Position numbers and translations under genes: made by a program. Below the pieces are notes generated by a model. That model did not search any database and had not been told where the DNA came from. It was given only the letters and a program-made list of their open reading frames with translations. From the NCBI GenBank assembly GCA_038845265.1, contig JAWBQR010000006.1, forward strand, positions 1 through 64,000: DNA of 64,000 bases, read 5' to 3'. Of this stretch, positions 21,619 to 39,155 are shown one piece after another. How positions within the stretch are numbered: the stretch's first letter is position 1; each line of letters begins with the position of its first letter. This DNA comes from Nitrososphaerota archaeon (GTDB lineage Archaea; Thermoproteota; Nitrososphaeria_A; Caldarchaeales; Calditenuaceae).

Positions 21619-22353
21619 ATGAAGAAATTACTAATCGAGGTCAAGGATCTATGGAAGGCATATAATGGCAAATCGGCAGTCTCTGGACTAAGCCTAAACG
21701 TCTCAGCAGGAGAGATTCATGGACTCATCGGATTAAACGGAGCAGGAAAGACAACAACGATAAAATGCATCGTCGGTCTTCTAAGGGCGGACTCTGGAGA
21801 GATTAGGGTCGCTGGAAGAGATGTATATATCGATGCTTCATATAAGTCCATTATTGGATACCTGCCGGAGAACCCGTCTCTCCCGGAGTATCTAACCCTG
21901 AGGGAGTTTCTAATCTTCGTCGCAAGAATAAAGGGTCTCAGCGGATCTAGGGCCGACTCTGAAGTATGGAATAAGCTTGCGCTCTTCGAGCTAGAGGAAA
22001 TCTCTGACCAACTGATATATGAGTTGTCAAGAGGTATGAAGCAGAGACTAGCAATCGCTGCAGCAATAATAAATGACCCAGATATCCTGATTCTTGACGA
22101 GCCCTTCTCTGGGCTCGACCCAGAGGCACAGAGAGTAACGAAACGAGTGATGAGGGAGACCGCTAATAAGGGTGGCGCCGTCCTCATCAGTACACATATT
22201 CTTGATGCAGCGGAAAGGTTCTGCAACAGGGCAACAATAGTCCATAAGGGCAGAACGCTAATAGAGGGAGCTATAGATGAGCTGAAGAGCCAGGTCGGCC
22301 TCGGCCCGAATGCCTCGCTGGAGGAAGCCTTCATCAAAATAATCAGCAGCTGA
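21619..22353 (+). CDS. ABC exporter ATP-binding subunit (CcmA/ABC-2 type)
   Basis: GLNGAGKTT, LSRGMKQRL, LILDEPFSGLDP, STH switch, SLEEAF C-terminus. Confidence 0.92.
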   Translation: MKKLLIEVKDLWKAYNGKSAVSGLSLNVSAGEIHGLIGLNGAGKTTTIKCIVGLLRADSGEIRVAGRDVYIDASYKSIIGYLPENPSLPEYLTLREFLIFVARIKGLSGSRADSEVWNKLALFELEEISDQLIYELSRGMKQRLAIAAAIINDPDILILDEPFSGLDPEAQRVTKRVMRETANKGGAVLISTHILDAAERFCNRATIVHKGRTLIEGAIDELKSQVGLGPNASLEEAFIKIISS

Positions 22354-23988: not shown

Positions 23989-25806
23989 ATGTTCAAGCAG
24001 AAAGCTAAGACGGAAGAAATTAGGAGACAGTGGCAGGGAATAGAGGTATTTCCAGTCAAGCCTGACTTCGAGATTCTTGACCGATACGTGATAAGAGAAA
24101 AATTCGCGGAGGTCATAGTGGCTTCTCCTCCGAGTAGAGTTGTTGAGCCGATTTATTACTGCGTCGAGGCCCCCCTTACTCCTCAGGAGGTGAATGCATT
24201 AGAAAAAGTAAAGGACATTTTGACGAAGGAGTTAGACTTCCCAAAGATTGGCGAGGAGGAAGAAGTAAAGAAAGTTGTAATCGATACGACGAAGAGGATT
24301 CTTAACAAATATAGAAGGGCACTAGGTCTAGGGACGCTCACGGATGAATTGTATGAGAAGTTTATTTACTATATTGAGAGGGACATGATGGGCTTCGGCC
24401 CGCTGAATATCATAATGGAGGACTATAGGGTAGAGGACGTGTCTTGTGATGGTCTCGGGATACCGATATATGTCTGGCATAGAGACTACGAGTCCATGCC
24501 TACGAATGTTATCTTCACGGACAGGGAGGCCCTTGACGACTTCATTATCCACCTAGCACATAAGGCTGGCAAGCACATCTCATCTGCTTTTCCAATTGTT
24601 GACGCGATGATATATGGCAAGCATAGGCTAGCAGCGACATTCAGGGAGGAGATATCGCCTAGAGGTAGTACATTCACGATCAGGAAGTTCAGGGAGAGGC
24701 CCTTCAGTGTTACTGAGCTATTGATGGCGAATGTTCTTAACAGCGAGATGGCGGCATACTTCTGGCTATTATTGGAGCATAAGGCAAGCATTATGATTCT
24801 TGGTGCTACTGGTAGCGGCAAGACGACTCTACTAAACGCGTTGACGACCTTCATCAGGCCGAGAATGAAGATCGTGACGTGTGAAGAGACGGCTGAGATA
24901 AACATTCCAAGGGAGAACTGGGTTAGATTCGTCACAAGGGAGAGCTATGGATTGGGCGCCACGGAGAGGGGACAAGTCACCCTATTCGACCTCGTCAGAA
25001 CTAGTCTCAGATATAGGCCTGACTACTTGATCGTCGGTGAGGTTAGAGGTGAGGAGACGTTTGTGCTCTTCCAAGCAATCGCGACTGGTCACGGAGGCAT
25101 CTCGACTGTTCACGCTGAGAGTATCGACTCAGCAGTAAAGAGATTCATGAGTCCTCCGATGAATATTCCTGAGACGCATATCTCGCTCTTGGACGCCATG
25201 GCCATGATTGAGAGGGTTCAGCTTAGGGGTAAGCCTCAGACATTTGGTAGAAGAGTTAGATACATCTGGGAGATAGAGGATGCTCATCACTACAGAACAA
25301 TTGCTGAGTGGGATCCGGTTACTGATTCCTTTAGAGTAAACTTTACTAATAGTCTTCAGCTCGAGAATATCTCGCTCCAGACAGGTCTATCTAGGGAGGA
25401 ATTGATACTTGAGCTTTGGAGAAGAAAGGAGATACTCGAGTGGATGAAGCAGAACAAGATCACTGACAACGCTGAGGTTGCCAGAATAATCCTGTCTTAC
25501 TATGCTGATCCAGAGAAATTCTTAAAGGAGGCAGGAATAATCATTAGGAAGCCAGCCATAATACAAGTAATAAGAACAGACACCTCCGTCGTTGAGGCTT
25601 CGAATAAAGAGGCTGCTCAGCAGGACGTGAAGCCGATCGAGGACTTCATCGTCAACTCCATTCTTAAGCGGACTGGCCCAATTCCTTACTGGCAGATCTT
25701 TGTGAAGGCTCCATTCTCCAGAGACCTAATTATAAGGGCGATGAGGCGGCTCAAAGACCAGAAAAAGATCGATATTGTGGGTGGAATAGTAGAGCTAACC
25801 GAATAA
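23989..25806 (+). CDS. Type IV pilus/archaellum-family assembly ATPase (VirB11/ArlI/TadA-like) with C-terminal extension
   Basis: IEDVSCDG-like (VEDVSCDG), GSTFTIRKF, GATGSGKTT, TCEETAE, RYRPDYLIVGEVRGEE, TGHGGISTVHA. Confidence 0.94.
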   Translation: MFKQKAKTEEIRRQWQGIEVFPVKPDFEILDRYVIREKFAEVIVASPPSRVVEPIYYCVEAPLTPQEVNALEKVKDILTKELDFPKIGEEEEVKKVVIDTTKRILNKYRRALGLGTLTDELYEKFIYYIERDMMGFGPLNIIMEDYRVEDVSCDGLGIPIYVWHRDYESMPTNVIFTDREALDDFIIHLAHKAGKHISSAFPIVDAMIYGKHRLAATFREEISPRGSTFTIRKFRERPFSVTELLMANVLNSEMAAYFWLLLEHKASIMILGATGSGKTTLLNALTTFIRPRMKIVTCEETAEINIPRENWVRFVTRESYGLGATERGQVTLFDLVRTSLRYRPDYLIVGEVRGEETFVLFQAIATGHGGISTVHAESIDSAVKRFMSPPMNIPETHISLLDAMAMIERVQLRGKPQTFGRRVRYIWEIEDAHHYRTIAEWDPVTDSFRVNFTNSLQLENISLQTGLSREELILELWRRKEILEWMKQNKITDNAEVARIILSYYADPEKFLKEAGIIIRKPAIIQVIRTDTSVVEASNKEAAQQDVKPIEDFIVNSILKRTGPIPYWQIFVKAPFSRDLIIRAMRRLKDQKKIDIVGGIVELTE

Positions 25807-25823
25807 ACAAATCAAATAATTTT

Positions 25824-27602
25824 TTATGTTGGCGTCGTGGGTAGTTGGAATGCTCCTACTGCGAAGGTTCCTGATAGCCATATCGCGATGAGGGAGATTA
25901 CTGCCATTATTACTGCGTGCTTGAAGCCTCCGGCTACTACGGCGCTTGAGACTTTTCCAGCAACTATGCCGCTTATTATTGCGATGATGATGACTGGTGG
26001 GAGGAAGAAGTGTATGAACTCTGCGGTCGATATGCTGAGTCTAGCAAGCTGGAGCAGGCCCTTCATGAATGATACAAGTATAACTACGACTACGATTAGC
26101 AGTATGGCTGTTAGATATGGTATAATCATTAGTGGCTTAAGAGTGGCCCTCTTCTCTCTCTCGATCTGTTCTAGGTCCTCTGAGAATGAGGCTAGTACCT
26201 CGAATGTCTCTGGCGCTCCTCCTCCAACATCTATCGCGTCGATGAGAATGAATATTCCCGCCTTCTCTAGCCATCCGTAGGTTCTTCTGGCGAAGTCTTC
26301 GTATATCTTTCTTAGGGGCATTCCCCAGCCTATCTGTCTCGCCATTACCTTCAAGTGCTTGCTGAAGGCTCCGTAGGGATTTCTTGAGAGGTCGATTATG
26401 CATCTCTCGGGGCTTAGTCCTGTCTTTCTTGCTTCTGTCAGGTCTCTGAGGAAGAGCGTCATTCCATGCATGACCGAGATATTTTCCGCACCGTAGAGTT
26501 GGTAGGCAACTGCGCCGGGGGTGAACATGATTATGAAGAATAATACGAGGGCGATGGATGACTCGTAGCCCATATCTAATCCAAGTAATTTTCGAAGAGA
26601 GACTATGAGTGATGAAGTGAAGTCTAATGGGCTCATGTATTGTAGCTCGGTGGCAAAGAATGGAAATACAAAGAAGAAGGCGAATACCATTGCTCCTGGA
26701 ATGGAGTAGTAGAATATGCGCATTGGTCTAGGGTCTGTTGAGGGGTATTTTGGCTGACTAATGTCTGCGAGATATATGAATAGTACGGACATCATTGGTA
26801 AGAAGAGATATGCGATCATTGCGAATTGCTCGGATGGCATGATGAGGAACTCTGAAGGAAGCGCCCTCGAGATGATGTAGATGGTGAAGATGACGAGTGA
26901 GAGCATCATCGTTATGGCTGCGTAGCCCTCCATCAGCATCCCCATCCTCTCGCCGACTATTCTCATCTTTCCCATCCTAGAGGTGAAGATCTGCTCAGTC
27001 TTCCTGATGAGGTAGTGGACCACGTCTCCGCCACTCCTCAGTGTCGAAGCGTATCCCATTAGTAGGTCCTTGTATTCTTTTGATGGCAGCCCCTTGGCCA
27101 TTTTCTCGATTGCTGAGACCGGGTCCATTCCTCCGACTCTTACGTTGAGCTCCGCGAGCTTAGCTGCTTTTGCAATGTTTGGCATGAGCTTGCTGTTGGC
27201 GAGTCTGGTCAGGCTCTTGTAAGGTGGTATGCCTCCTGTTGCCATGACTGCGAGGTAGCTTGCGGCGTATGGTACCTCGCTCTCGAAGAGGGAGGCCGCT
27301 GAGGAGGCTGAGAGATATGGCCAAGCGATTCCTATTAATAGGCATAGTCCAGGCATGGCGAGCAGTACTGCTGTGGCTATCCAGCTGCCGGTGAGGAAGT
27401 ATAGCGCTGCACCTGTTGGTATGCAGACTATGGCCGTGATTATTGTTATTGCCGCGACCATCGATGTGAATACTTCTGGATATATTCGTTTTCCGGCGCT
27501 TTCCAGTCTCATCGGGATTCCCGGCGCTATCTTTAGTAGGTATGCTCCAAGTGTCCTGAAGTTTGCGTATGAGAAGCTTGAGAAGGACTCCGCTATTCCC
27601 AT
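25824..27602 (-). CDS. Type IV pilus membrane platform protein (T2SSF/TadC/ArlJ-like, two repeats)
   Basis: EVPYAASYLAVMATGG, STLRSGGD, FLRDLTEARKTGLSPE, LIDAIDVGGG, AGGFKH; multiple TM helices. Confidence 0.92.
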   Translation of the reverse strand: MGIAESFSSFSYANFRTLGAYLLKIAPGIPMRLESAGKRIYPEVFTSMVAAITIITAIVCIPTGAALYFLTGSWIATAVLLAMPGLCLLIGIAWPYLSASSAASLFESEVPYAASYLAVMATGGIPPYKSLTRLANSKLMPNIAKAAKLAELNVRVGGMDPVSAIEKMAKGLPSKEYKDLLMGYASTLRSGGDVVHYLIRKTEQIFTSRMGKMRIVGERMGMLMEGYAAITMMLSLVIFTIYIISRALPSEFLIMPSEQFAMIAYLFLPMMSVLFIYLADISQPKYPSTDPRPMRIFYYSIPGAMVFAFFFVFPFFATELQYMSPLDFTSSLIVSLRKLLGLDMGYESSIALVLFFIIMFTPGAVAYQLYGAENISVMHGMTLFLRDLTEARKTGLSPERCIIDLSRNPYGAFSKHLKVMARQIGWGMPLRKIYEDFARRTYGWLEKAGIFILIDAIDVGGGAPETFEVLASFSEDLEQIEREKRATLKPLMIIPYLTAILLIVVVVILVSFMKGLLQLARLSISTAEFIHFFLPPVIIIAIISGIVAGKVSSAVVAGGFKHAVIMAVISLIAIWLSGTFAVGAFQLPTTPT

Positions 27603-27743
27603 TCTTGCTTTATCATTGTATCGGTGGGTATTTAAGCATACCTAAAATAAACGCTTGGCCAGCATTTTCTAAACATTTCTAGAATCTGCATCTTTTCCTC
27701 GACCAAATAACTTATATTAATGGGTAAGTAATTATTCAATGAC

Positions 27744-28157
27744 ATGCGGATGGACCGTAGGAAATCAGGAATAAGCCCTGTCGTCGCGACAGTAATTCTA
27801 GTAGCGGTCGCAATCGTCATCGCGATAGCCGTAGCCTTCTGGGCATCGGGACTAGTCGGAGTATTCACAAGATTCGAAAAAATAGAAATACAATCAGCAT
27901 ACTACGACGGTAGCAGTATTGTCATAATAGCAAAGAATACTGGCTCAAGCAATGCAGTAATAGACATGATAATGGCAAACGGAGCACCATGCATAGTGAC
28001 GTCCTCACCCATTAACATAGGAAGTACATTCAGCATTGCTATCACTGCTTGTGATTCTGACGCTGGCGGAACGATCTATACAGGTGGCGTGACAAACGAG
28101 ATTGCTCTGCACACGACAAGCGGCAAAACCTACCCAGTGGCTGTGCTGGTTCCGTAA
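27744..28157 (+). CDS. Archaeal type IV pilin (probable major pilin)
   Basis: Class III signal peptide RRKSG|ISPVVATVILVAVAIVIA, then KNTGS motif and a Cys pair; 137 aa. Confidence 0.92.
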   Translation: MRMDRRKSGISPVVATVILVAVAIVIAIAVAFWASGLVGVFTRFEKIEIQSAYYDGSSIVIIAKNTGSSNAVIDMIMANGAPCIVTSSPINIGSTFSIAITACDSDAGGTIYTGGVTNEIALHTTSGKTYPVAVLVP

Positions 28158-28162
28158 ACTCT

Positions 28163-28908
28163 CTACTTACATAATTTTTTTAATACTACATGATGAACTA
28201 ATCGGCTTTCTGAAACCGTAGTTATGTCTAGTCCAAGCCCAGAAGCTTTTCTGCAAAAGCTGCATCCGCAAGTCCTCCCAACAGCTTTTGCATGCACTTC
28301 CACAACCACCATCTTCCAAAACTCTCTAAACTCTGATAGATCATCTAACAAAAACGGTTCAGCACCCTCAATATCTATCTTAACTAAATCGAAAACAACT
28401 CCCAGCCTCCTGAACAGAGCACCTAACGTAGTAGCTTCTATACGGATTCTCTTACTCCAAGCACCACGGCTATACAAACCCGAAATGTCCCCCTTAGGTT
28501 CAACGGAAAAAAATCGACAAACCCAGGCTCTTTGTCAACTACAGCATTGATAAGTAGGGCGTTTTTAAACCCGTTACGCCTTATTGAGGCCAGTAAGCAG
28601 CGATAGTTCAGCGGATCGGGCTCAACCCCGACAACCATCCCATCACTTCCAACCTTAGACGCGGCCCTCAGCATATAACCTCCCAAATGCGCTCCGATAT
28701 CGAGAAACCTAGAGCCTGAACCTAATTTATTCAAAATAAACGACATCAAGGTTTTTTCATACACGCCCAATGGAATCAAGATATCATGAGGCCGCTTCAG
28801 ACTGCATGCAAACCATACACCATCCGCATGAACCCAGAAAGGGATTGATGGAAAAAGCTTGAAGGGAATTGTCCAAAAGGCCTTTTCAAAACGTCTTAAA
28901 AGCTTCAT
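28163..28908 (-). pseudogene. FkbM-family SAM methyltransferase, split at T7 run (28507-28513); needs -1 shift
   Basis: FLDIGAHLGGY and VEPDPLN are in ORF 28438-28908. KIDIEGAE and VVEVH are in the -1 frame (ORF 28163-28477), which is open back to the T-run (FSVEPKGDISGLYS). Confidence 0.82.
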
Positions 28909-29870
28909 TTCTTCTTAACCAAACCGTACAGAAAACCAAGAGCATAAGCAAGATGATGCAATGGAAAAAACGCCATCATAATCGGTAATGCCACAAAATC
29001 ATGATTTTTCCCACAAACACGAATCGACTCAAAACATAAAGCACAAAAGTACGACACAACCAAAGCTATCCACGAAAGAACAGGAACAACTCCAAAAATA
29101 GACAATACGCCTAACGATGAAAAAGCCATCAAACCGGCCGACGGCAAAATAAAGACAAGCTTAAAAGAGTCTGGAAATCTTTTAACCATCATAGCCCTCC
29201 CACGACCATATCTAAAAACCTGAAGCATATGCCCAAAAAATCCCCTCCTTTTGTGATATGCAACGAAACTAGGATCATACAATAGAGAGTAGCCTAGCTT
29301 TGATATTTTGTGAAGAAGAATATTTTCTTCGGCTGGGTAGATGTCTTCTGGAAAGCCCCCAGCCTCTAAAAATGCCTTACGACGCACCATTAAATTACAT
29401 CCAGTTAGCATCCTTTCATCTACATGGCGCGGGCCATTCATAGCTCTATATCTCCACCTCATTACAGACGAGCCTATAGGAGAGGAAAGCACATAACCGC
29501 TGCATCTCTCCCACACATTGGCTGGATTCATAGTCAGGTTAGGTCCCCCCACGGCACCAACCCTCTCATCACTAAAATGTCTAGACACCTTATCCAACAC
29601 TCTAAAATCTATCACAACATCGTCATCCAAGAATAGCAGCAGCTCACCCTTACTTTTACTAACACCTAGGTTGCGATTTGCTCCAGCTGTCCCTCCAGTT
29701 ACAACTAGTACTTCTATATTATCCATCTTTGCAAGCTCATCACTTCTCTCCAACAATAACACTTTTTTCCTCGTACTGGCAATTATCATTGACACACTTG
29801 GGCTCCTCCCTATACTGTGAAAAACTACGGAGGGCTCTTGTATTTCCGTCAACATGCTGTATAATGACAA
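28905..29870 (-). CDS. Glycosyltransferase family 2 with C-terminal TM helices
   Basis: ANRNLG, LLFLDDD (DxD), GAVGGP, GCNLMVRR, GGFPE...AEE, YGRGRA, then 2-3 TM helices. Confidence 0.9.
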   Translation of the reverse strand: MSLYSMLTEIQEPSVVFHSIGRSPSVSMIIASTRKKVLLLERSDELAKMDNIEVLVVTGGTAGANRNLGVSKSKGELLLFLDDDVVIDFRVLDKVSRHFSDERVGAVGGPNLTMNPANVWERCSGYVLSSPIGSSVMRWRYRAMNGPRHVDERMLTGCNLMVRRKAFLEAGGFPEDIYPAEENILLHKISKLGYSLLYDPSFVAYHKRRGFFGHMLQVFRYGRGRAMMVKRFPDSFKLVFILPSAGLMAFSSLGVLSIFGVVPVLSWIALVVSYFCALCFESIRVCGKNHDFVALPIMMAFFPLHHLAYALGFLYGLVKKK

Positions 29871-29952
29871 AGAGGGTTTAAAATATTAGCGTAGCTATAT
29901 GCGGCGGTAAATCTTAAGGTAAGACGCTTAGGCTACTGGTTGAAGATGGTGT

Positions 29953-30336
29953 TTAGACTCGTCCTACTAATAGGGCGCCAATAACTATCAGTAGGACTCC
30001 AACCCACTGCTGAATAGTTACGGTCTCCCTCAGCAAAAAGTAGCCAACGAGCAAGATAGAGGCTATGGACATCGAGAGAAAGAACCGACCCAGCATTACG
30101 CCCATGTCAATATAGACCCAGTAGCTTAGAACCGCGACGGCGAAGCCTGTAACCATGGCCAATACGAACCATCTATTGAAGAAGAGCGTAAGCAGGAACC
30201 TCGCAGAGACCTCGGGCTGACCCAACTCCCTGGTTACAAGTCCCCAAAAGAGTGTATTCAGACCCACAAGCACAACAACCAGAAAGCCGATAAACCAGTG
30301 CGCTGATGCCAAAAGCCCACCCCTTCCAATACTCAC
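29953..30336 (-). CDS. Small DMT/EamA-like membrane protein (ArnE/F-like candidate flippase)
   Basis: 127 aa with 4 TM helices and the DMT C-terminal motif FLLRETVTIQQWVGVLLIVIG. Confidence 0.72.
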   Translation of the reverse strand: MSIGRGGLLASAHWFIGFLVVVLVGLNTLFWGLVTRELGQPEVSARFLLTLFFNRWFVLAMVTGFAVAVLSYWVYIDMGVMLGRFFLSMSIASILLVGYFLLRETVTIQQWVGVLLIVIGALLVGRV

Positions 30337-30432
30337 CCACCATTAGCCATAAATATATCCTTCAAGCATCGATAACCGAAGACAGCCGCTAAGAATTTAT
30401 ATCGAATACTCTAGTATTTCGCAACGAGCAGT

Positions 30433-31803
30433 TTGCAGACTCGTAGGAAGATGGCAGTTATGCTCGGAGTAATCGTCATCCTAGGCTTTGCTATACGGTT
30501 TAGCGTCTGGGTTTACCCCATGTATGGTGCACAGGGCCTAATTATCTTCGACACAGGCGCTTATCCAATATTCGGGCTTTCATACATCCAAGCCCTCACG
30601 TCAATGAACCTATCAGCCCTAGCCAGGATAAACGTAGGTGTCCCACCTCTTGGCATGCTCCTAACAGGCCTAACTACACAAGCCTTCGGGCAACACATAG
30701 GTCCAATCCAAGCAAGCCTAATCCCACCAATAACCGCCTCAGCACTAACAGCCATCCCCGCCTACATGATCGCTAAGAAAATCCATCCCAAACACTCTTT
30801 AATCCCATCAATAATAGTCGCTATGGACCCATTCCTCATCCAATTCTCCGCCACCTACCTAGACTCTATCGGAACACTCTTCGCCCTCACATCAGTCGCC
30901 TTCGCCATAAACCACAGCGACAGAAGGTCATTCATCCTAGCGGTTCTATTCGCATCACTCGCAGCCCTCTCTAAGCTAACCTTCGCAGTCTTCATAGCGG
31001 TTTACGGCATCCTCCTAGTGCTGTTAAGACAAATGAGCCTAAAGAGGGGAGCTGTCTACATTCTGGTCCCCGCAGCATCGCTATTCCTAAGCCCTTGGGC
31101 TTGGACGCCAACCACCCTGCAGGAAGGCGTCACAGGAAACATCCAGTTCAACAACCTCCCCCTCTCACCTTTACTGGGTCCCTTCGCAATAGGCATCCCC
31201 CAATCCCTCCCATGGTACATACTTTCATATTTCGGCTTGGGGCAGGTCTTCTGGAATACGCTTCCATTCATCTCTCCGTTGATACTTCTATTCATGATTG
31301 TTTATAGATTCTTCAAGAGAGAGTTATATCTACCATTGATGCCGAGCATAGCTACTTCAGCAATGATACTCACGATCTTCCTACTGCCTAGGAATTACTG
31401 GACATATTCTTGGGCAGGAGGAGCAGTCCAGGGCATCTTGTCCAGGCAGTTTTATCCATACTACTTCTATCCGACAGGACCATTCATAGCAGTCCTCGCA
31501 GGAATACTACTATCGGGGCGTCACGATAATAGTGTCAAGTCTAGGCTCTTGTCTTATCCAATTTTTATGGCGGCACTGGTCTCGCCTATGGCAGTCATCA
31601 TGAATCTAGGCCTGCCCTACTGGGACTTCATCTTCACGATAATCTATAACCTCACAGCCGGACAATTCATACTTGAAGGAATAATAGCAACACTCATCAC
31701 TACGGCTATGCTAGTAGTCCTGCTGCTCGTCACGGAGAAGCTGTATAGAAGCATAACCGCTGAATTTATGGAGCCCCGCAAGCAACAAACTGCAGGACAG
31801 TAG
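30433..31803 (+). CDS. GT-C fold membrane glycosyltransferase (PMT/ArnT-like)
   Basis: First loop after TM1 has IFDTGAY...VPPLG. Also AMDPFLIQFS..YLD and LAALSKLT; about 12 TM helices. Confidence 0.72.
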   Translation: MQTRRKMAVMLGVIVILGFAIRFSVWVYPMYGAQGLIIFDTGAYPIFGLSYIQALTSMNLSALARINVGVPPLGMLLTGLTTQAFGQHIGPIQASLIPPITASALTAIPAYMIAKKIHPKHSLIPSIIVAMDPFLIQFSATYLDSIGTLFALTSVAFAINHSDRRSFILAVLFASLAALSKLTFAVFIAVYGILLVLLRQMSLKRGAVYILVPAASLFLSPWAWTPTTLQEGVTGNIQFNNLPLSPLLGPFAIGIPQSLPWYILSYFGLGQVFWNTLPFISPLILLFMIVYRFFKRELYLPLMPSIATSAMILTIFLLPRNYWTYSWAGGAVQGILSRQFYPYYFYPTGPFIAVLAGILLSGRHDNSVKSRLLSYPIFMAALVSPMAVIMNLGLPYWDFIFTIIYNLTAGQFILEGIIATLITTAMLVVLLLVTEKLYRSITAEFMEPRKQQTAGQ

Positions 31804-33073
31804 TCGAGTTGCTTGACTTAAGAAGCTCCGCCTCTAATAACTTGCAGAGATAATAAACTCCTTCTGCAACTGGCGTAGAGATAGAGGAAGAATCATAATG
31901 ATCTCCTGTCGCCTCTCCGACCGCGCTTAGAATTCTTATCTGATACGTGAAGTATCCTCCAAAGTCATTGGTGATCGTAGCATTGAGCGAGACGTAACCA
32001 ATATACGATTCCCCAGGGGAGAGTCTCTCAATAGTCATCCTGCTTGTCGATGGCGAAAGTGTAGCTCCAATACTGCTGGATGTAAATTCTAATCTGATTT
32101 TTCGCAGCGGCTCAGTGTTGTTTCCAAGCGAGACGATGAACGGTATCCTAACTATTACAGATGATTCACCTGTCTCATTCTTAAGGACAACCATGCTGCT
32201 CGTCTGTGTCAGCTTAACCCTTAGTGGTAATGGTCTATCCACTTCCAGAACATTTGAACCACCGACCTTAACTACTACGTTTGAATCAACAATTACTCTT
32301 ATCGGGCTCGGCAGGACGTTTGCCTCGCCTGTCCATCTATCTCCACTCCATTCCTGGCTGACAACGGATATTGTGTATACGCCTGGAGCCACATTGAAGA
32401 CGAATAGGTCCTCTAGGTCGTCGATTCTTGAGGCCACCATCGCCTGCTCGGCGCTTCCCCTGCAGCCCTCTGTGAACTCTTCGCTGTTTAGTGAGACGCA
32501 GCCATATACTTTGGTTGTTCTGGGGTCGGTCACCACGTTTACCCTCACTACGTATCTGTATCCGAGGCTCATGTTTGATAGCTGGACCATTAGTAGGTAG
32601 GGAAGCCTATTCGGGCCTATTGATTCAGGGGTTACAAAGCTATTTCCCCGGAGAGTGGGCGCCCTAATCACAACTGTCTCGTACGGCTCGACATAGAAGT
32701 TTATCGGCTCCATGATGTATTCGCCTGGAGCCAGTTTATACTGCCTGTCTACTCGCTGAAGCCCTATCCTAGTACTCTCTACGTAGAGTGTCGGGACGTT
32801 TATCTCGATTGGCCCACGATTACCAATTATGAGGAATAACTGTCTTCTACCAAATGTGTCAAGTTCTGGAGGCTGGAGCGTGACTCTAATATCGAGCTTC
32901 TCATTTAGTTTCTCAACCTCGAACTGCAGTCTCCTGGCCACCTCATCCATAAACAGTGTCTGAATGCTCTGCATAAAGACCCACATAGGAATCATCACGG
33001 TGAAGAAAATCATTATGGCTATAGCGGCACCAACTACTGCCGAGACTCCAGCTCTTCTCCTCCTATCCCTCAT
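31766..33073 (-). CDS. Large pilin-like protein (class III signal peptide)
   Basis: RRRRAG|VSAVVGAAIAIMIFF, EKLNEKL, I.N.G pilin-type motif, beta-rich domains and many N-x-S/T sequons. Confidence 0.8.
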   Translation of the reverse strand: MRDRRRRAGVSAVVGAAIAIMIFFTVMIPMWVFMQSIQTLFMDEVARRLQFEVEKLNEKLDIRVTLQPPELDTFGRRQLFLIIGNRGPIEINVPTLYVESTRIGLQRVDRQYKLAPGEYIMEPINFYVEPYETVVIRAPTLRGNSFVTPESIGPNRLPYLLMVQLSNMSLGYRYVVRVNVVTDPRTTKVYGCVSLNSEEFTEGCRGSAEQAMVASRIDDLEDLFVFNVAPGVYTISVVSQEWSGDRWTGEANVLPSPIRVIVDSNVVVKVGGSNVLEVDRPLPLRVKLTQTSSMVVLKNETGESSVIVRIPFIVSLGNNTEPLRKIRLEFTSSSIGATLSPSTSRMTIERLSPGESYIGYVSLNATITNDFGGYFTYQIRILSAVGEATGDHYDSSSISTPVAEGVYYLCKLLEAELLKSSNSTTVLQFVACGAP

Positions 33074-33074
33074 C

Positions 33075-33779
33075 TCATCCTGCCCCCTCCGTCTTTGTGA
33101 CAGTCGTCCTAGTTGTTACAGTGGTTGAGCCTGTGATTGTTGTTGTTGTGGTAGTTGTAATGGTCGTGCTGGATGGAGTGGTTATACTAGATACTATTGT
33201 AGTAGTAGTTGTTGTTGGATTAGCGATTGTCGTTGTAGTCGTTGTGGGGACGGTTGTTGATGTAACTCCTGAGACAGTGGTCGTTAATGTTATGGTAACT
33301 GTGGATGGAGTGTAAATTGTTGTGGAGCGAGTTATCCAAGATGTCGATGTAGTAGTCCGTCTAGTCAACAATGTTATGTAATAATTTACCGTACTAGTCG
33401 TGGTTCTACTAGTAGTGGTTGTAGTCGTTGCAGTGGTACGAGTAATAACAGTTGACGTTCCCGTCTTAGTGGTCGTAGTAGAGCTTAGTGTTCTTGTTAT
33501 TGTCGTGGTGGTTGTTCCAGACTTCACTGTCTGCGTGGAGGTAGTCGTGGTTGAGTAAGTATTGTAAGTAGTGTATGTCGATGTTACTGTAGTCGAGGTG
33601 GTGATTGTTCCGCCAGTAACTGTTTCTGTAGTTGTCTCCGTTACCCAAACAGTCTCTGTCAATGTCTCCGTCTCAGTGACGTAGACTATTCTCTGAGCGA
33701 GAACACTCGTGGCGCCGAACAATAAGACAACAAATATAGCGAGCATGCATATTCTCGCAAATAATTTATTTAGATCCAA
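33075..33779 (-). CDS. Secreted threonine-rich protein
   Basis: Sec-type signal peptide (…ATSVLA|QR), then about 205 aa that are roughly half Thr. Tightly packed in the pilin operon; the DNA is not a simple tandem repeat. Confidence 0.78.
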   Translation of the reverse strand: MDLNKLFARICMLAIFVVLLFGATSVLAQRIVYVTETETLTETVWVTETTTETVTGGTITTSTTVTSTYTTYNTYSTTTTSTQTVKSGTTTTTITRTLSSTTTTKTGTSTVITRTTATTTTTTSRTTTSTVNYYITLLTRRTTTSTSWITRSTTIYTPSTVTITLTTTVSGVTSTTVPTTTTTTIANPTTTTTTIVSSITTPSSTTITTTTTTTITGSTTVTTRTTVTKTEGAG

Positions 33780-35698
33780 TTATGCCACCTCCTTTTAACA
33801 AATCTCACTATTGGGTAAGTAAAGAAGGATGCAAGCGACAGATAGACAAATACAAGTCCAGTAGTGCCCCAATATCCAATCGGTGAGTAAGCGGCATCTT
33901 GTGGCAGATTAGCCCCACGAGGGGTCGGTGTAACTGTTGTCGTAACAGTGATGGTCACGGTTCTAGTAACACTTGTGTAAACGGTCGATGTAATCGTCCT
34001 AGTATATGTATATGTTGGTGAGTACCTGGTCGTTGTTGAAGTCGTGGTCATAGTAACAGTCGGGCTAATAATACTAATCGTAACTGTTGAAACAGGCCTA
34101 GATGTGTAAATAGACGTGTAAACAGTCACTGTTCTATACACAGTCACGGTCTGAGTAGGACTAGTTATCGTATATGTCAGTGTTGTTGTACGTGGAACGG
34201 TAGTCGTAATAGTAGTGGTGTAGCTCGTCGTTGTCAAAGTCCTAGTAGTCGTAGTCGTTTTCCAGCTCGTGATTGTTGATGTTCTCCAAATCGTACTCCT
34301 ACTAGTAGTAGTTGTGACTGGAGTAGTCCTTGTCGTGGTTGTCGTGGTCCAAGCAGTAAATGTACTAGTCGTGCTGGGAGTAGTAATAGTAGTAGTCGAG
34401 GTCAGAGTTGTTGTTGTCGGAGCAGTTGTAGAGACCGTAGACGTTGTTGTAGAAGTGACAGTCCTGGCTGGAAGCGTGGTCGTCGTAGTCAAGGTCGTGG
34501 TAGCAGTGGTCGTCGTAGTCACGGTAGTCGTCGTTGTCACGGTCACCACTGGAGTAACATCAGTCGTGGTAATTACTACCCAGCCGATATCAAGGATATT
34601 TACCGGACGACTAAGAACCAAGCTATACTGCTCAATAAACACTACCAGTCCTCCAAGACTAATTGTGACGTTTAATCTCCCAGTAGCCGCCACATTGCCG
34701 TAACAATCATAAATAGTGACGTCAAGCTGGTAATTACCTGAGTCGTAGTAACCAATGGATAATATCACTTCATCTACTCTAAAGTTCTCGAGGTCAACTC
34801 GAAGCTTCATATAATCAATAAAAGTGCCATAATCATTTGGATAATTCCAATGGGGAGGAATAACTGTCAGTGCAGGGTCAGGGGAGCTCAGAAGAACGTA
34901 AAGAGGAGGCTCCAGACCACTCTTATCAAGCGTCACATAGACCTCCTGCGGCAGCCTACCCACGACTTCTACCTCGCCATAAGCAGTGACGCCATTCTTA
35001 TCACGCACTTCAACACTTAGTGGAATTATCGGTAGCACGGTGCTCGAGTTCAATACTCTTAGCTTAATCACGTCAGCCATAGTGCCGAATTCATTTGTCT
35101 CCTTTGGGTCTACGACCTCGACTAATACCCAGTTCTCAGTCGGTATAACACAGCCACTAGAAAGTCCATATGACGGGGGATCTGCCTTAAAACTCTCAAC
35201 CTTGAATAATACAGTCTCATAGTCAGGTTTAATAAGCCTGGGGTCAGAGGGGTTGAAGAGATCAGCAGGGACATAGTGTACCTGAACTATAATAGGGTCA
35301 CCCTCTCTACAGAGACTAGCAGGACAAACAAACTCATATTGCTGGTATTGACCGACGTCCAGACGCATCAGCTCCTCTATTCCAGTATCATGCACGATCG
35401 TGCCATTCCTAATAGTAAGTGTACGGAAAACAACGATCGGAACAGAACCAACGTTCCTAAGCATCATCAATCCTCTGCCACCGCCAACATGTACTTTGTC
35501 TGGAAAATAGACATAATCGGCACTGATCTTTGACCTAAGAACTAGTGCCTGTTCACTCACTTTTTCGATTTTTTCTTGTCGCCAGATTCCGGCATAACTT
35601 GAGAGGAAAGCCCAGAGACCTATGCCGGCAGAAAGGACAAGGGCAAGAATAATAACCGTGGCCAGTATATCGCTGTAGCCATGGTTATTTCGCGTCAT
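33770..35698 (-). CDS. Large pilin-like protein with Thr-rich stalk and C-terminal TM anchor
   Basis: HG|YSDILATVIILALVL class III-like signal, LRNVGS motif, about 380-aa globular part, about 210-aa Thr-rich segment, then TM + VRFVKRRW. Confidence 0.8.
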   Translation of the reverse strand: MTRNNHGYSDILATVIILALVLSAGIGLWAFLSSYAGIWRQEKIEKVSEQALVLRSKISADYVYFPDKVHVGGGRGLMMLRNVGSVPIVVFRTLTIRNGTIVHDTGIEELMRLDVGQYQQYEFVCPASLCREGDPIIVQVHYVPADLFNPSDPRLIKPDYETVLFKVESFKADPPSYGLSSGCVIPTENWVLVEVVDPKETNEFGTMADVIKLRVLNSSTVLPIIPLSVEVRDKNGVTAYGEVEVVGRLPQEVYVTLDKSGLEPPLYVLLSSPDPALTVIPPHWNYPNDYGTFIDYMKLRVDLENFRVDEVILSIGYYDSGNYQLDVTIYDCYGNVAATGRLNVTISLGGLVVFIEQYSLVLSRPVNILDIGWVVITTTDVTPVVTVTTTTTVTTTTTATTTLTTTTTLPARTVTSTTTSTVSTTAPTTTTLTSTTTITTPSTTSTFTAWTTTTTTRTTPVTTTTSRSTIWRTSTITSWKTTTTTRTLTTTSYTTTITTTVPRTTTLTYTITSPTQTVTVYRTVTVYTSIYTSRPVSTVTISIISPTVTMTTTSTTTRYSPTYTYTRTITSTVYTSVTRTVTITVTTTVTPTPRGANLPQDAAYSPIGYWGTTGLVFVYLSLASFFTYPIVRFVKRRWHNWI

Positions 35699-36843
35699 GC
35701 TTCCTCAATCCTCACTTCGACTTTATACACATTCTCCATTCCTACCGCGGGACTAATATCGATAAACACAGAGTCAGAGTATATCCCAGTCGGGAAATTA
35801 ACTGTGACGCTTCCCTGACCAACCGCCATATCTCGGCAATCATAAATCGTGACCACTACTCTATATCTACCACCAACTGCATCATTTACACCCAGTTCAA
35901 CCTCCACTACATCTACAAATTTCTCTGCATCATACCAAAGCGTAACGCCAGATACGTGTGCCTTCCCCGGCAATCCTCCTATAATCCATTCACGCTGTAT
36001 AACGTCAAAACCCGTAGCGCTGATCTCGATGATTAGGGGCACCTGAAATCCACTGAATGGACCAGTAAAGCTCTGAAGAGAATTACTTATACTCTTAATA
36101 TAAGTCGAGGCGTATGCGACTTCGCCGCTTGAATTAGTGACCCTGATAGTAGCATCAACATCTGCTAGTGATGATGCCATCGGTGTTCTTATGTATATCT
36201 TGTTGAATGGAGGCCCAGGTATCTTTCCACTGCTAAAGTAGGTAACGGGGTCAACAATGTTGACCATCATCCAATTCTCAGGCAATGGACATACAGAAAC
36301 TACTCCACTCTCAGGAAATACGAAAAGTGTCTCCGAGAACCTCATCTCATCAACAGAGATCTGCGGATTACTTTCATCAAATAATGAGGAGGCAATATAC
36401 CAAATCCGCATTCTAAGTCTTTCTTTTGATTGACATGTGGGGCATGGCGGTACAAGGTCAGGACCAAGCACAGCGGCTTGGCCAGGCTCCACCCTAGTCA
36501 AGTTATCGTACCCAATACCCGTAACTGGTCTATAATCCCTAATTTGGCCATCCATTGAGACAATTTCTATCCGCGTAATTGTGAGCGGCACCCTAGCGAT
36601 GTTCCTTACAGTAACGGAGCGCCACGTAGATGTATAATTAACAAACTCAAAAGAAAGCTGAGAAGAAGTCTTGATGAGCAAAATATCTCTATTTACATTT
36701 TTAGTTAAGTCATAGAGCGAGACGCCGAACCATCCCGTAGCAAAACCCCAAACCACTATGCCCAACGCTACCGTTGCACTAGCAAGTATAATAGCACCAA
36801 GGACAGTATCGCCAGATTTCCTTTTAGTTTTCATTCTCCCCAT
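35695..36843 (-). CDS. Large pilin-like protein, paralogue of the globular part of 33770-35698
   Basis: KRKS|GDTVLGAIILASATVALG. VRNIA, CPTC, CPLPENWMMVNIVDP and VTIYDC match motifs in the downstream gene. Confidence 0.8.
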   Translation of the reverse strand: MGRMKTKRKSGDTVLGAIILASATVALGIVVWGFATGWFGVSLYDLTKNVNRDILLIKTSSQLSFEFVNYTSTWRSVTVRNIARVPLTITRIEIVSMDGQIRDYRPVTGIGYDNLTRVEPGQAAVLGPDLVPPCPTCQSKERLRMRIWYIASSLFDESNPQISVDEMRFSETLFVFPESGVVSVCPLPENWMMVNIVDPVTYFSSGKIPGPPFNKIYIRTPMASSLADVDATIRVTNSSGEVAYASTYIKSISNSLQSFTGPFSGFQVPLIIEISATGFDVIQREWIIGGLPGKAHVSGVTLWYDAEKFVDVVEVELGVNDAVGGRYRVVVTIYDCRDMAVGQGSVTVNFPTGIYSDSVFIDISPAVGMENVYKVEVRIEEA

Positions 36844-37066
36844 GAATAGTTAACTCTTGCTTTAAGTAATTACCGGAAATATTTAAATATTTAATAATCG
36901 AATAAAAATCGAGTACGTATCTTCCAAAAACTTTCAATAAGAAAATTGCAAAAAACAATATATGATAATTTGTAACATTGTTTTTGGCCACTTGTTAATA
37001 TGTTTTAAAAACATTTTAATATAGCCCGGCCCAAAGATAATAATAGTCGTTGAGGAAGGGGAAAGA

Positions 37067-38773
37067 TTGAATATTCTAAGGCTACTCACAAGAATTCTAA
37101 TCATCGCCGCAATAGCATTTGTATTTTGGTTTGTCGGAGGAGAGTTATTTTATTCAACTTTAAGCGGAATAATGCCACCAAGAGACTTCACTACAATTTT
37201 AGTAGTAGATATAATTATTGGAATAATTTTGGGAATAGTTTATGGAATAGTGCTCATAAAGATTTTACCCGGCTTACTACCATATCTATCAGGGACAATA
37301 ATAGGAGCCTTCGCATCATTAGCAATCTCAACTAATATCGGCTCAATTGCAAACCCTCTGACTAAAGTTGTTGGAATCATATTCTTCCTAGCTCCCGGCG
37401 CAATACTCAACATGCTAGTAATCTCGAAGCTAAGATCAAGAGCTGCTACGACGCGGGCTCCCACCCCTGAGACACCTAAACCATCAATGACAGAGACGGC
37501 AAAAGCCGAGACCTCTCCGCAATCTACGCAGACGTCGCCTCAAGAACAACTAACCAAACCAGCAGAAGAAAAGCCCCAGGAAATTGGCCCAGAGCATCCA
37601 CTCACCTCCGTCTCCGGGTCGGAAAAACAATTAGTAGAGCAGCCCAAAGTCCCTGCCCAACAAAACACGACCATGAGTGCTCCCGAACAAGAAATAAAGC
37701 CTAAAAGCGAGCATGAGATAATAACAGAGGACAAAGGGGAGTATTTGGTTCAGGAGATTCCAGAAGAAAAGATAGTAACTCCAATAACAGATGAAGATTT
37801 AGAGGAAAAAATCTTAGAGGTCATTGAAAAAGAAGGATTAACGGAAATAGTCCCGCTGCCAAGTAACCTATCGCCAGAGGGAGGATTTTATCCAGATATA
37901 GAAGAGAAGGTAGGCATAGAAACCTCAAAACTGCTCTCAGTCTTTAAGTCGCTTACGGATCGAGGAATACTTAAGCAGTCAGGAGTGGAATTTAAGAAGA
38001 TTGTCTGTCCAAGATGTCTGAGTGCATTGAATATAATCAATATAGGATGTCCCTTCTGCAAGTCAATCAACATTGCTAGGCAGAGAATTCTCCAGCACGA
38101 GTCATGCGGCTTCCTAGGACCGGAAGAAAGATTCACGGAGAGTGGAAAAACAATCTGCCCAAGATGTGGCGCTGAGGTTGAAATAATCAGAGGACAGAGC
38201 GAAGAAGTAGGCAAAGAGATATTAAAGGTCCATTCTACACTCTTTACATGCTATAATTGCAATGAAGTAAGCACAGAGCCCTATGTATCCTTCCGATGCC
38301 TCACCTGCGGAATGATATACGATCTCGTCACTTTTGAATCTAAAAGTTTTTACAGATATTCGGTAAATCTAGATGCGCTCTATAAAGCATTAGAGCTAAA
38401 GAAGCCAATAAAAATAATTGTCGAAGAGATGAGCAAGAGAGGAATAGAAGTTCAACAGCAAGTAATGATAACAGGCGCATCTAAAGTGCCGCACAAAGTA
38501 AATCTATTATTCCGGAAGGATGGGAAAGTCATTGGGGGTGCGATACTGATTACGGATAAAGGCGAATCCCATCTCCACGAGATTATGCGCGTACTAGTGC
38601 TCAGAACAGATGCAGGCATCAAGAATCTATATGTATTGAGCTACTATAAGCTTGATGATGATGCGAGAAAGCTCGCACAGTTCAACGAGATACCAGTCAT
38701 AGAGGATGTATTAAGCAAAGATGCGGCTAATGAAATATTACCTAGGATGCTAAAATCAATTCTGGAGCAATAA
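37067..38773 (+). CDS. Membrane-anchored TackOD1-domain protein with C-terminal restriction-endonuclease-like fold
   Basis: 4 N-terminal TM helices, P/E/Q-rich linker, wHTH-like segment, multi Zn-ribbon (CPRC..CPFC..HESCGF..CPRCG..CYNC..CLTCG), then GASKVPHKVN. Confidence 0.75.
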   Translation: MNILRLLTRILIIAAIAFVFWFVGGELFYSTLSGIMPPRDFTTILVVDIIIGIILGIVYGIVLIKILPGLLPYLSGTIIGAFASLAISTNIGSIANPLTKVVGIIFFLAPGAILNMLVISKLRSRAATTRAPTPETPKPSMTETAKAETSPQSTQTSPQEQLTKPAEEKPQEIGPEHPLTSVSGSEKQLVEQPKVPAQQNTTMSAPEQEIKPKSEHEIITEDKGEYLVQEIPEEKIVTPITDEDLEEKILEVIEKEGLTEIVPLPSNLSPEGGFYPDIEEKVGIETSKLLSVFKSLTDRGILKQSGVEFKKIVCPRCLSALNIINIGCPFCKSINIARQRILQHESCGFLGPEERFTESGKTICPRCGAEVEIIRGQSEEVGKEILKVHSTLFTCYNCNEVSTEPYVSFRCLTCGMIYDLVTFESKSFYRYSVNLDALYKALELKKPIKIIVEEMSKRGIEVQQQVMITGASKVPHKVNLLFRKDGKVIGGAILITDKGESHLHEIMRVLVLRTDAGIKNLYVLSYYKLDDDARKLAQFNEIPVIEDVLSKDAANEILPRMLKSILEQ

Positions 38774-38777
38774 GTAG

Positions 38778-39155
38778 TCACAGATTTAGGTGAATCTTCC
38801 CTACTCTGTTTACATAGATATACCTACATCCTGTCTCCCGCAACTTTCTAGACATTTCAAAATCCGAAGTGACAACTAACAAATTCGTATTTTTCGATAG
38901 TTTAACCAGTTGCTCATCAGTACTAGCATCGATACCGGCATCGATTATTTTCATCCCTAATGAAATCTTAAGTGCTGTTTTTGCGTAAAGAGCTCTTTTT
39001 CCTTTTTGTTTGGATAGTTTTACAAGTTCGTCAATTACGCTCTTAAGTATTATTGGTTCTAGGCAGTCATTTAGTTTATCCTCTATCATGGAGATTATGT
39101 TTCTCCCTTTTTCTGCCATAAGCATTAGAAAACTTGTGTCTATTAGTGCTTCCAA
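38778..39155 (-). CDS. PIN-domain ribonuclease (Fcf1/Utp24-like)
   Basis: LIDTSFL, VIDEL, TDEQL, VTSD. Conserved position downstream of aIF2-gamma. Confidence 0.88.
   Translation of the reverse strand: MEALIDTSFLMLMAEKGRNIISMIEDKLNDCLEPIILKSVIDELVKLSKQKGKRALYAKTALKISLGMKIIDAGIDASTDEQLVKLSKNTNLLVVTSDFEMSRKLRETGCRYIYVNRVGKIHLNL

Follow-up and report, generated by a model that had tools for sequence, protein, structure and literature searches.

The stretch of DNA analysed here (the window: 64,000 nucleotides, positions 1 to 64,000 of contig JAWBQR010000006.1 from an archaeon of the Calditenuaceae, order Caldarchaeales) carries a type IV pilus (T4P) locus at 23989-38773 that is real and conserved, and probably expressed. 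An ATPase and a platform protein are encoded together with four proteins whose N-termini are of class III (pilin) type: a small pilin of 137 amino acids and three large proteins, here named pil382, pil642 and pil435. They are accompanied by a secreted threonine-rich protein (Thr234), a group of sugar genes and a gene for a TackOD1-domain protein. On balance, we favour the reading that these genes specify a lineage-specific T4P system of the Caldarchaeales, in which a fibre of small pilins is combined with an accessory complex of large pilins, a co-encoded O-glycosylation pathway and a TackOD1 regulator or adaptor. The host genome (G000) comprises 1.37 Mb in 34 contigs and is 93% complete, the window being its contig C6; the stretch was found, whole or in part, in 20 sequencing runs from nine studies of hot-spring metagenomes. 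Below, G, L, C and X numbers denote genomes, fetched loci, contigs of the host genome and sequencing runs, while f and g numbers denote families and genera.

The core pilus machine

Family scans agree with the first-pass annotation on the ATPase, the platform and the short pilin. The ATPase matches Pfam T2SSE (E 3.4e-34; 118.5 bits against a cut-off of 24.9) and the platform matches T2SSF in two stretches (5.1e-22, 78.6 bits), which places both among type IV filament components. The nearest solved proteins to the ATPase are those of Archaeoglobus (2oap, 333 bits) and FlaI (4ii7, 230 bits). The small pilin scores 27.8 bits with NCBIfam TIGR02537 (cut-off 20) and is similar over its full length to solved archaeal pilus subunits (8tib, 2e-4; 8fjs, 2.7e-4; 8fk7, 6nav and 6w8x; E values from 2e-4 to 0.045), and because of this similarity it is probably the major subunit. 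Serine and threonine make up 19% of its residues, and it contains no N-X-S/T sequon, so that any glycan on it would be O-linked. Its C-terminal part (27995-28083) varies between data sets: 87 letters are replaced by 90 in an allele of X5, and X17 shows a 3-nt insertion with several substitutions, which suggests that the probable major subunit is diverse within the population.

The locus had been described as matching neither the archaellum nor the Ups pilus nor the bindosome, and indeed all curated cut-offs for these systems were failed. For the archaellum, family scans of 16 locus proteins returned no archaellin and no ArlF/G/H/X-type accessory genes, the ATPase reached 362.6 bits with FlaI (cut-off 550), and the platform fell far under the cut-off for ArlJ. 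The Ups pilus was rejected on UpsF (74.1 bits against 400) and UpsA (23.8 and 22.3 bits against 130), and the bindosome (Bas) on BasE (221.3 bits against 1000) and BasF (74.6 bits against 1300).

No prepilin peptidase is encoded within the window. The sole Peptidase_A24 match of the genome lies on another contig (G000:C2:83617-83946, 44.6 bits), which bears out the suggestion that the peptidase acts in trans; since the peptidase is encoded elsewhere and one sugar gene is frameshifted (see below), the label "self-contained" does not hold. A second T2SSF/T2SSE pair is present at G000:C4:119554-123115, with the ATPase match within an open frame of 989 amino acids, and a lone archaellin gene, the only archaellin match in the genome, lies at C4:71361-71879. 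This organism therefore has at least two type IV filament systems, of which the locus is one.

Conservation of the locus

A pil382 search covered 61 genomes of the order, and 14 loci were then fetched from 14 genomes of four families. The cassette order (pil382, pil642, Thr234, pil435) is fixed in all 14 loci, as is the pil382/pil642 pair; pil435 is present in 13, the fourteenth locus being cut by a contig end. Ten of the loci carry a secreted Thr-rich open reading frame (ORF) between pil642 and pil435, of 168-237 amino acids and 40-51% Thr, with an N-terminal hydrophobic signal. This ORF is missing from two loci of genus g12, and masked bases or a contig end obscure two more. The same two g12 loci also lack the stalk and the anchor of pil642, yet they have all three large proteins. 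The ATPase (56-78% identity), the platform and the small pilin each recur in 10 of the 14 loci, and a same-genus relative has the cassette proteins in open frames, at 83-85% identity. Conservation across four families places this arrangement far beyond chance.

In the genomes sampled, the pil382 family itself was found only within the order. The class is represented by 76 genomes, each listed under this same order; the family profile has a match in 48 of them at E ≤1e-6, and in 29 it is full-length at <1e-50. In a phylum-wide sample of 301 genomes, 24 have a match, every one of them from the order's four families; the 256 genomes sampled from other families yielded none at E ≤1e-12. Close relatives of pil382 include proteins of Candidatus Calditenuaceae archaeon HR02 and Candidatus Caldarchaeum sp. 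The neighbourhood comparison shows the large pilins, the GT-C-type glycosyltransferase gene and the TackOD1 gene in synteny with the ATPase and platform genes in relatives; nor does the locus map cleanly onto a characterised archaeal T4P clade with the same components.

The three large pilins

All three large proteins proved to be pilin-like, as first annotated, with a predicted class III cleavage. The AlphaFold2 model of pil382 (predicted local distance difference test, pLDDT, 85.9) consists of a helix (residues 12-59) and two β-sandwich domains. In Foldseek, the helix and the first domain superpose on a pilus subunit of Pyrobaculum calidifontis (8fk7_A, TMt 0.71); the remaining matches are generic tandem immunoglobulin (Ig), fibronectin type III or MG folds. 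Four cysteines (Cys134, 137, 185 and 336) are invariant in the alignment of its orthologues. pil642 is a paralogue of pil382 with 26% identity over ~340 residues and the same four-Cys pattern: residues 1-384 are pil382-like and are followed by a stalk (385-600), a C-terminal hydrophobic segment and a basic tail. The model of pil435 (pLDDT 84.6) has a helix at residues 5-56 and three β-rich domains with generic tandem Ig-like matches only, and its N-terminal 140 residues align with the pil382 family by hhalign (probability 89.9%, E 1.7e-6).

The profile of the pil382 family retrieved 102 proteins at E ≤0.001 from 1.84 billion cluster representatives, 23 of them at E ≤1e-30. The weaker matches are pilin-sized proteins that align to the N-terminal module (N-module), and in a Pfam scan of 18 of the 102, all small N-module relatives, none had a family at E ≤0.01.

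A complex of pil642 (residues 32-384) with pil382 (36-382) and the pil435 N-module (30-184) was predicted with the membrane helices removed. The score was 0.44, against 0.00 for the best of three controls, which is weak support; runs agreed in at least 46% of contacts, and partner pLDDT was at least 75. The pass mark used is reached by 58 of 80 solved complexes and by two of 110 mismatched pairs, and among passes scoring ≤0.60 there are just seven of the 80 solved complexes and both of the mismatches. The prediction thus raises the odds of an accessory-pilin complex only slightly.

Some relatives depart from the window in their pilins. The pil382 orthologues of family f3 (L019, L021, L023, L024 and L027) have a predicted mature N-terminus of the type L/I-T-V/I-V-E, with Glu5 as in bacterial type IV pilins, which the pil382 of the window lacks. 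Genera g4 and g7 possess one or two extra gene pairs beside the GT-C gene, each a pilin of ~170 amino acids followed by a pilin-like protein of ~400 amino acids with a pil435-like N-terminus (L015:6282-7965, L016:4529-8192, L017:5020-6688 and L022:11756-13451); no such pair is present in the window.

The Thr-rich segments

The first-pass annotation spoke of "giant Thr-stalked minor pilins" and of a secreted protein of about 50% Thr. The stalk is a property of pil642, of which residues 385-600 are 51% Thr; pil382 and pil435 contain 7% Thr each, so that just one of the three large pilins is Thr-stalked. The stalk with its C-terminal hydrophobic segment and basic tail is found in all ten stalked orthologues that could be judged. 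Thr234 is indeed of secreted type, with an N-terminal hydrophobic signal and no anchor; its Thr content is 51% after the signal peptide and 45% for the whole protein, and its residue mix is that of the pil642 stalk.

Among 2206 frames of at least 100 amino acids, the pil642 stalk (the strongest) and Thr234 are the two most Thr-rich segments of the genome, and both lie 1-4 kb from the GT-C gene. Milder Thr-rich linkers occur beside membrane anchors in other surface proteins of the genome, e.g. at C10:20716-21786 and C13:23473-25077. The anchor of the former is designed like the pil642 C-terminus: the protein has a stretch rich in P and T, a membrane segment at its C-terminal end and an RRKR tail. 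A tandem repeat scan of the Thr-coding DNA found short arrays only (~2-4 copies), hence the stalk is not a clean repeat array. No archaeosortase or exosortase (PF09721) was found in the 93% complete genome, and a sortase-type cleavage of the pil642 anchor is therefore unsupported here. Thr234 (33075-33100) and its orthologues end in a conserved G-rich motif (EGAG, GVGN, EGGG) just before the pil435 start codon; this motif may owe its presence to a pil435 ribosome-binding site and not to the protein.

The sugar genes

Between the small pilin and pil435 lie four sugar-related genes, whose first annotation as a family 2 glycosyltransferase (GT2), a drug/metabolite transporter (DMT) protein with four transmembrane segments (4-TM), a GT-C transferase and a FkbM methylase holds to different degrees. 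Pfam families agree for the GT2 (Glyco_trans_2_3, 1.7e-9; Glycos_transf_2, 1.6e-8). An orthologue of it is found in L017 only, while another, non-orthologous GT2 occupies this place in L015 and L016. The 4-TM protein scores 15.9 bits with EamA (PF00892), below the cut-off of 28.2, and the four sequences examined together span 13.3-21.6 bits (E 0.016 to 2.7e-4); its profile has insignificant SLC35 matches only in the PDB (E 4.8-6). Its nearest ESM Atlas clusters are EamA proteins of 116-123 amino acids (score 0.96, 221 of 256 features shared). It is a candidate lipid-linked sugar flippase. Orthologues are present in L015, L016 and L022.

The GT-C protein of the window has no Pfam or NCBIfam match, even at E ≤5, and a profile of its alignment finds no PDB sequence at E ≤10. 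The assignment is a tentative one drawn from its relatives: a same-genus orthologue (L014:14840-16228, 48% identical) matches PMT_2 (PF13231; 1.2e-11, 45.6 bits against 26.1), the sole such match among six aligned orthologues, and the nearest ESM Atlas clusters are ArnT/PMT_2 (score 0.98). Asp40, in the putative first loop, is invariant in six sequences; an acidic residue in the first extracytoplasmic loop is a feature of PMT_2/ArnT-like GT-C enzymes.

The GT-C profile has a match in 23 of the 61 genomes searched. A full cassette and a GT-C match occur together in 15 of them, and in 14 of these the GT-C gene is on the cassette contig within 10 kb; the exception is G018, where it stands beside a small pilin-like gene on another contig. 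Of 19 genomes with stalked cassettes, 15 have GT-C, and of the two with stalkless ones neither does; these counts come from related genomes and do not amount to a statistical test. It adjoins the small pilin gene in G001 (33-nt gap) and pilin genes of 165-200 amino acids in G005, G007, G009, G013, G017, G018 and G027. The accompanying genes vary. In G005 and G007, a non-orthologous GT2, a FkbM gene and a 4-TM gene lie between the small pilin and GT-C, the best similarities of this GT2 being polyprenyl-phosphate sugar synthases, far below threshold; G027 has FkbM, a window-type GT2 and GT-C, and G015 has GT-C, a 4-TM gene and a FkbM-like gene. The sugar module is thus recurrent but variable, and it is facultative.

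The FkbM frameshift, population variants and RNA libraries

The FkbM methylase belongs to its annotated family (PF05050, TIGR01444), but it is frameshifted, its Methyltransf_21 domain being split over two frames. By tblastn, the frame changes at a run of seven T (28507-28513), and two relatives have a single ORF of 247 or 252 amino acids; the domain is intact in L016 and L017. The T-run has the length seen in the window in X1 (possibly the same sample) and is one letter shorter in X5 (another study), and neither restores the frame. These differences could reflect decay or slippage-prone variation.

In the assemblies of both X1 and X5, a minority contig joins 28105 to 31213 via 873 other letters, replacing ~3.1 kb that hold FkbM, GT2, the 4-TM gene and the start of GT-C. 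In X1 it reaches a depth of 15.8 against 39.9, in X5 one of 8.7 against 22.4, and its length fits a small pilin followed directly by GT-C, the order of the same-genus G001. The path is anchored by sides of 23 letters only, and such joints can stem from other organisms; it hints that a strain or a sister species lacks FkbM, GT2 and the 4-TM gene. The contigs of G001 and G002 also end within the region 28105-31213.

RNA libraries of one study (runs X17 and X19) yielded contigs over the small pilin and the whole four-gene cassette, and in each of the two runs a single contig spans the pil642/pil382 junction; DNA can occur in such libraries. Most of 28322-32364 (FkbM, GT2 and most of GT-C) is left uncovered, apart from a 247-nt contig of X17 (3.1x) at 30028-30274, and contigs of this kind cannot show absence.

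The TackOD1 protein

A divergently transcribed TackOD1 gene had been annotated in the locus, and the protein indeed scores 90.2 bits with PF18551 (1.7e-25, cut-off 32). It is composed of an N-terminal transmembrane block, a long P/E/T/Q-rich linker, the Zn-ribbon TackOD1 domain and a conserved C-terminal domain. Eleven cysteines are invariant in eight homologues, in agreement with the pattern of 11 conserved Cys, in five CXXC and one HXXC, given in the available text of PMC5847659. A long-form homologue is found in the locus of eight of the 14 relatives, where its neighbour is pil382, the ATPase or the platform according to genus, and four f3 genomes have shorter TackOD1 genes on other contigs. 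Three more TackOD1-domain genes of the host genome (C2:152203-152718, C3:127357-127728 and C5:33766-34155; frames of 293-350 amino acids) lie away from the pilus genes examined. As far as the text available to us goes, Galperin et al. (PMC5847659) report that thaumarchaeal T4P loci contain the domain and that it occurs as an output domain of response regulators, and term its function obscure.

Layout of the locus and its surroundings

All thirteen features first reported for the region are present in the ORF listing and its translation (Table 1). They do not form an operon as a whole, since the genes occupy both strands and by their arrangement amount to at least six transcription units; only the cassette genes are coupled (4-nt overlap, 10-nt overlap and 1-nt gap, in the order pil382, pil642, Thr234, pil435). 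The intergenic region at 36844-37066 contains several TATA-like A/T runs and a purine-rich stretch ahead of a TTG start, which may be promoter elements. A scan for sigma-70 promoters and terminators (37 sites against 27.7 ± 5.2 in shuffles) was set aside, as this bacterial model is inapplicable to an archaeon.

Table 1. Features of the type IV pilus locus, with window coordinates
Feature	Positions	Strand	Basis or remark
ATPase, 605 aa, PilB/ArlI class	23989-25806	+	Pfam T2SSE
Platform protein, polytopic, 592 aa, two T2SSF domains	25824-27602	-	Pfam T2SSF; convergent with ATPase
Small class III pilin, 137 aa	27744-28157	+	TIGR02537
FkbM-family methyltransferase, two overlapping frames	28163-28908	-	PF05050 and TIGR01444 on separate halves
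GT2 glycosyltransferase, 321 aa, C-terminal part hydrophobic	28905-29870	-	Glyco_trans_2_3, Glycos_transf_2
4-TM EamA-like (half-DMT) membrane protein, 127 aa	29953-30336	-	EamA below cut-off; ESM Atlas
GT-C, polytopic, 456 aa, PMT_2/ArnT-like	30433-31803	+	PMT_2 match of orthologue; ESM Atlas
pil435, large class III protein, 435 aa; last cassette gene	31766-33073	-	Model, hhalign
Thr234, Thr-rich protein with Sec signal, secreted, without anchor	33075-33779	-	Composition
pil642, pilin-like part, Thr stalk (385-600) and C-terminal anchor	33770-35698	-	pil382 paralogue; composition
pil382, large class III protein, 382 aa; first cassette gene	35695-36843	-	AlphaFold2 model, Foldseek
AT-rich divergent intergenic region, 223 bp, pil382/TackOD1	36844-37066		Sequence
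Membrane-anchored TackOD1 protein, 568 aa	37067-38773	+	PF18551

The locus is flanked by housekeeping genes (aminoacyl-tRNA synthetases, citrate synthase, eIF2-gamma, NDK and ribonucleotide reductase) and is therefore chromosomal and on no obvious mobile element. Upstream, 92 bp before the pilus ATPase and on the same strand, an ABC ATPase and a membrane protein of 514 amino acids without a Pfam family are encoded at 21619-23897; this transporter is not counted as part of the system, because none of the 14 fetched loci has a homologue of it. Downstream, a PIN_9 domain protein (38778-39155) lies between the TackOD1 gene and eIF2-gamma, an order that is the same in G001. A second GT-C-type protein (GT87, 1.3e-6) at 43558-44676 and an NAD-dependent sugar epimerase/dehydratase at 48689-49597 are found 5-10 kb downstream of the locus.

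A model of the pilus and its alternatives

In the model that we favour, the 137-residue pilin would build the fibre, and the three large proteins, each with a pilin helix and Ig-like sandwiches and encoded in one coupled operon, would form a low-copy accessory complex. By analogy with bacterial minor-pilin sets, this complex may prime, cap or anchor the fibre and display its Ig-like domains for adhesion; a tip or anchor role is reasonable but unproven. pil642 would be tied to the membrane by its C-terminal anchor through the stalk of ~215 residues and 51% Thr, and Thr234, of the same composition, probably joins the stalk layer. The GT2, the EamA-like 4-TM protein and the PMT_2-type GT-C would together constitute a lipid-carrier pathway that loads a sugar in the cytoplasm, flips it and transfers it on the outer side of the membrane, so as to O-glycosylate exported pilus proteins; methylation of the sugar would fall to FkbM, which is broken in this genome. 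The TackOD1 protein may be a cytoplasmic regulator or adaptor of the machine.

That the Thr-rich proteins are O-glycosylated is likewise reasonable but unproven. The Thr-rich segments are our foremost, if tentative, candidate for the glycan acceptor; the small pilin is a less probable one, and some other acceptor is less probable still. A more specific proposal, which we regard as rather unlikely, is that the GT2/4-TM/GT-C set is a dedicated archaeal O-glycosylation pathway with the stalk of the doubly anchored pilin and its secreted Thr-rich partner as acceptors, the two jointly forming a glycan-coated tether that fastens the pilus to the cell.

Several observations weigh against this model. 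The organism is uncultured, and all functional steps beyond family membership are inferred from sequence and models. A subunit anchored at both ends is hard to place at the tip of a long fibre, and a complex prediction that passes as weakly as ours is more often wrong than right unless the complex was likely beforehand. The RNA-library contigs are no proof of transcription, as the libraries may hold DNA. As for the sugar genes, FkbM is frameshifted in two assemblies, the GT-C and 4-TM proteins of the window are below Pfam cut-offs, and the GT2 matches no polyprenyl-phosphate synthase model at a useful score and no solved chain in the PDB. Stalked cassettes without a GT-C match occur in G021 (99% complete), G030 (97%), G037 (96%) and G014 (73%), GT-C is merely a remnant in G003, and the remnants of G003 and G054 carry stop codons. 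Finally, the most constant neighbour of GT-C is a small pilin gene, not the Thr-rich genes.

This last point leads to the alternative that survives best, although we judge it improbable: the sugar genes may serve the small (major) pilin or a non-protein acceptor rather than the Thr-rich proteins, in the manner of TfpW, whose gene stands beside pilA in Pseudomonas aeruginosa. The direct adjacency of GT-C to the small pilin in G001, its position near other pilin genes in seven further genomes, the stalked cassettes that lack it and the want of an N-linked sequon in the small pilin all agree with this. There is also a precedent, in that TfpW needs a lipid-linked sugar and a small (GtrA-like) flippase, for which ArnE/F can substitute, according to the available text of bioRxiv 10.1101/2020.04.19.049825. 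However, the Ser and Thr content of the small pilin is about half of the ~37% of the heavily O-glycosylated Sulfolobus pilins (PMC7347861), the two most Thr-rich segments of the genome lie close to GT-C, and GT-C is missing from both genomes with stalkless cassettes.

A somewhat more doubtful alternative is a surface-display or bindosome-like envelope structure, in which the T4P machine assembles a short stub and the large class III proteins stay as adhesins of the envelope or S-layer, with pil642 held by its C-terminal anchor and the Thr-rich proteins as a glycosylated spacer layer. The membrane anchor at both ends of pil642, consistent in every stalked orthologue that could be judged, would suit such an arrangement, as would the Thr-rich linkers beside membrane anchors in other surface proteins of the genome. 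Against it, the small pilin resembles subunits of solved filaments, BasE and BasF scores are far under their cut-offs, the Pfam scan revealed no substrate-binding proteins with class III signals in the locus, and the g12 cassettes keep three large proteins without stalk and anchor. Decay of the locus in this lineage, or of its sugar module at any rate, to the point where it has ceased to work as a unit is very unlikely: the out-of-frame FkbM of the window, X1 and (at another length) X5, the GT-C remnants of G003 and G054 and the minority path seemingly without FkbM, GT2 and the 4-TM gene would fit, but the other twelve features are intact, the cassette frames are open and well conserved in the same-genus relative, and RNA-library contigs cover the pilin genes.

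Significance

Archaeal pili are adhesion organs and virus receptors, and to our knowledge little is known of archaeal accessory (minor) pilins. The T4P system favoured here would offer a conserved, compact set of three multi-domain pilins that can be tested for tip or anchor roles, one of them (pil642) being unusual for a pilin in that both its ends carry a membrane anchor; a stalk tether, if real, would anchor a type IV filament in a new way. Candidate transferase genes stand beside the most Thr-rich proteins of the genome. As no archaeal O-glycosylation enzyme is known, a gene set small enough to be rebuilt in a laboratory host would make the question testable, and the GT2/4-TM/GT-C set, if correctly read, would be its first genetic handle; in 2021, the pathway was called "still elusive" (PMC8241124). 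The locus also gives TackOD1, of obscure function in print, a concrete setting.

Comparison with known systems

The region had been put forward as an undescribed system. It is an uncharacterised T4P system, but the presence of TackOD1 (arCOG06883) and of extra "S-layer protein or adhesin" components in thaumarchaeal T4P loci is already in print, as the available portions of PMC4858521 and PMC5847659 attest. The closest parallels are the clade-4 T4P loci of Thaumarchaeota and the TACK group (Makarova, Koonin and Albers 2016, PMC4858521), which in the text available likewise contain an ATPase, a TadC-like platform, PilA-type pilins and the double-Zn-ribbon arCOG06883 protein, later named TackOD1 (PMC5847659). 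Our locus differs from them, as far as they are described there, in its three large Ig-domain pilins, the doubly anchored Thr-stalk pilin, the secreted Thr-rich partner and the linked GT-C module, and also in that its large-pilin family was found in none of the 256 genomes sampled outside the order. Our search of the literature on TackOD1, thaumarchaeal type IV pili and Aigarchaeota pili brought up neither the three-pilin cassette nor the Thr-stalk pilin with its two anchors nor the GT-C link; it did not extend to supplementary locus figures, which may show the locus. In the available parts of these papers, four pilus types are counted in ammonia oxidisers (PMC7554672), a different pilus is described in Nitrosocaldus (PMC5797428) and a pilin gene is merely listed for Caldarchaeales (PMC10547907).

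The TfpW system of Pseudomonas aeruginosa group IV pili, in the account available to us, also has a polytopic membrane glycosyltransferase within the pilin locus, next to pilA, and a cytoplasmic sugar linked to a lipid carrier. The enzyme family (PMT_2/ArnT-like) and the domain of life are different here, and the partners in the candidate pathway are a GT2, an EamA-like 4-TM protein and FkbM. Bacterial minor-pilin and pseudopilin tip sets, such as GspH-I-J-K and FimU-PilV-W-X, comprise several unlike pilin-like proteins encoded beside one abundant small pilin, with one member enlarged by additional domains, and in these respects they resemble the cassette. They share no sequence relationship with it, however, and the cassette is set apart by its archaeal Ig-like domains and one C-terminal membrane anchor; the complex prediction for it is weak.

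In the haloarchaeal S-layer glycoprotein, a Thr-rich stretch sits before the membrane anchor, and in pil642, too, such a stretch leads straight into a hydrophobic C-terminal anchor that has a basic tail. The haloarchaeal protein is O-glycosylated (cited in PMC8241124); pil642, unlike it, has a pilin N-terminus, and its host genome yielded no archaeosortase or exosortase. The Aap-type pili of Sulfolobales and the pili of Pyrobaculum (6nav, 6w8x, 8fk7, 8fjs and 8tib) are built of pilins like the 137-residue protein, and it is on one of them that the pil382 N-module superposes. Their loci are simple, with few small pilins, in contrast to the three multi-domain pilins and the candidate transferase genes found here. 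Sulfolobus pilins are heavily O-glycosylated on Ser and Thr by an enzyme that is unknown (PMC7347861). The Thr-rich parts of the Caldarchaeales system lie outside the pilin globular domain, in low-complexity segments of their own.

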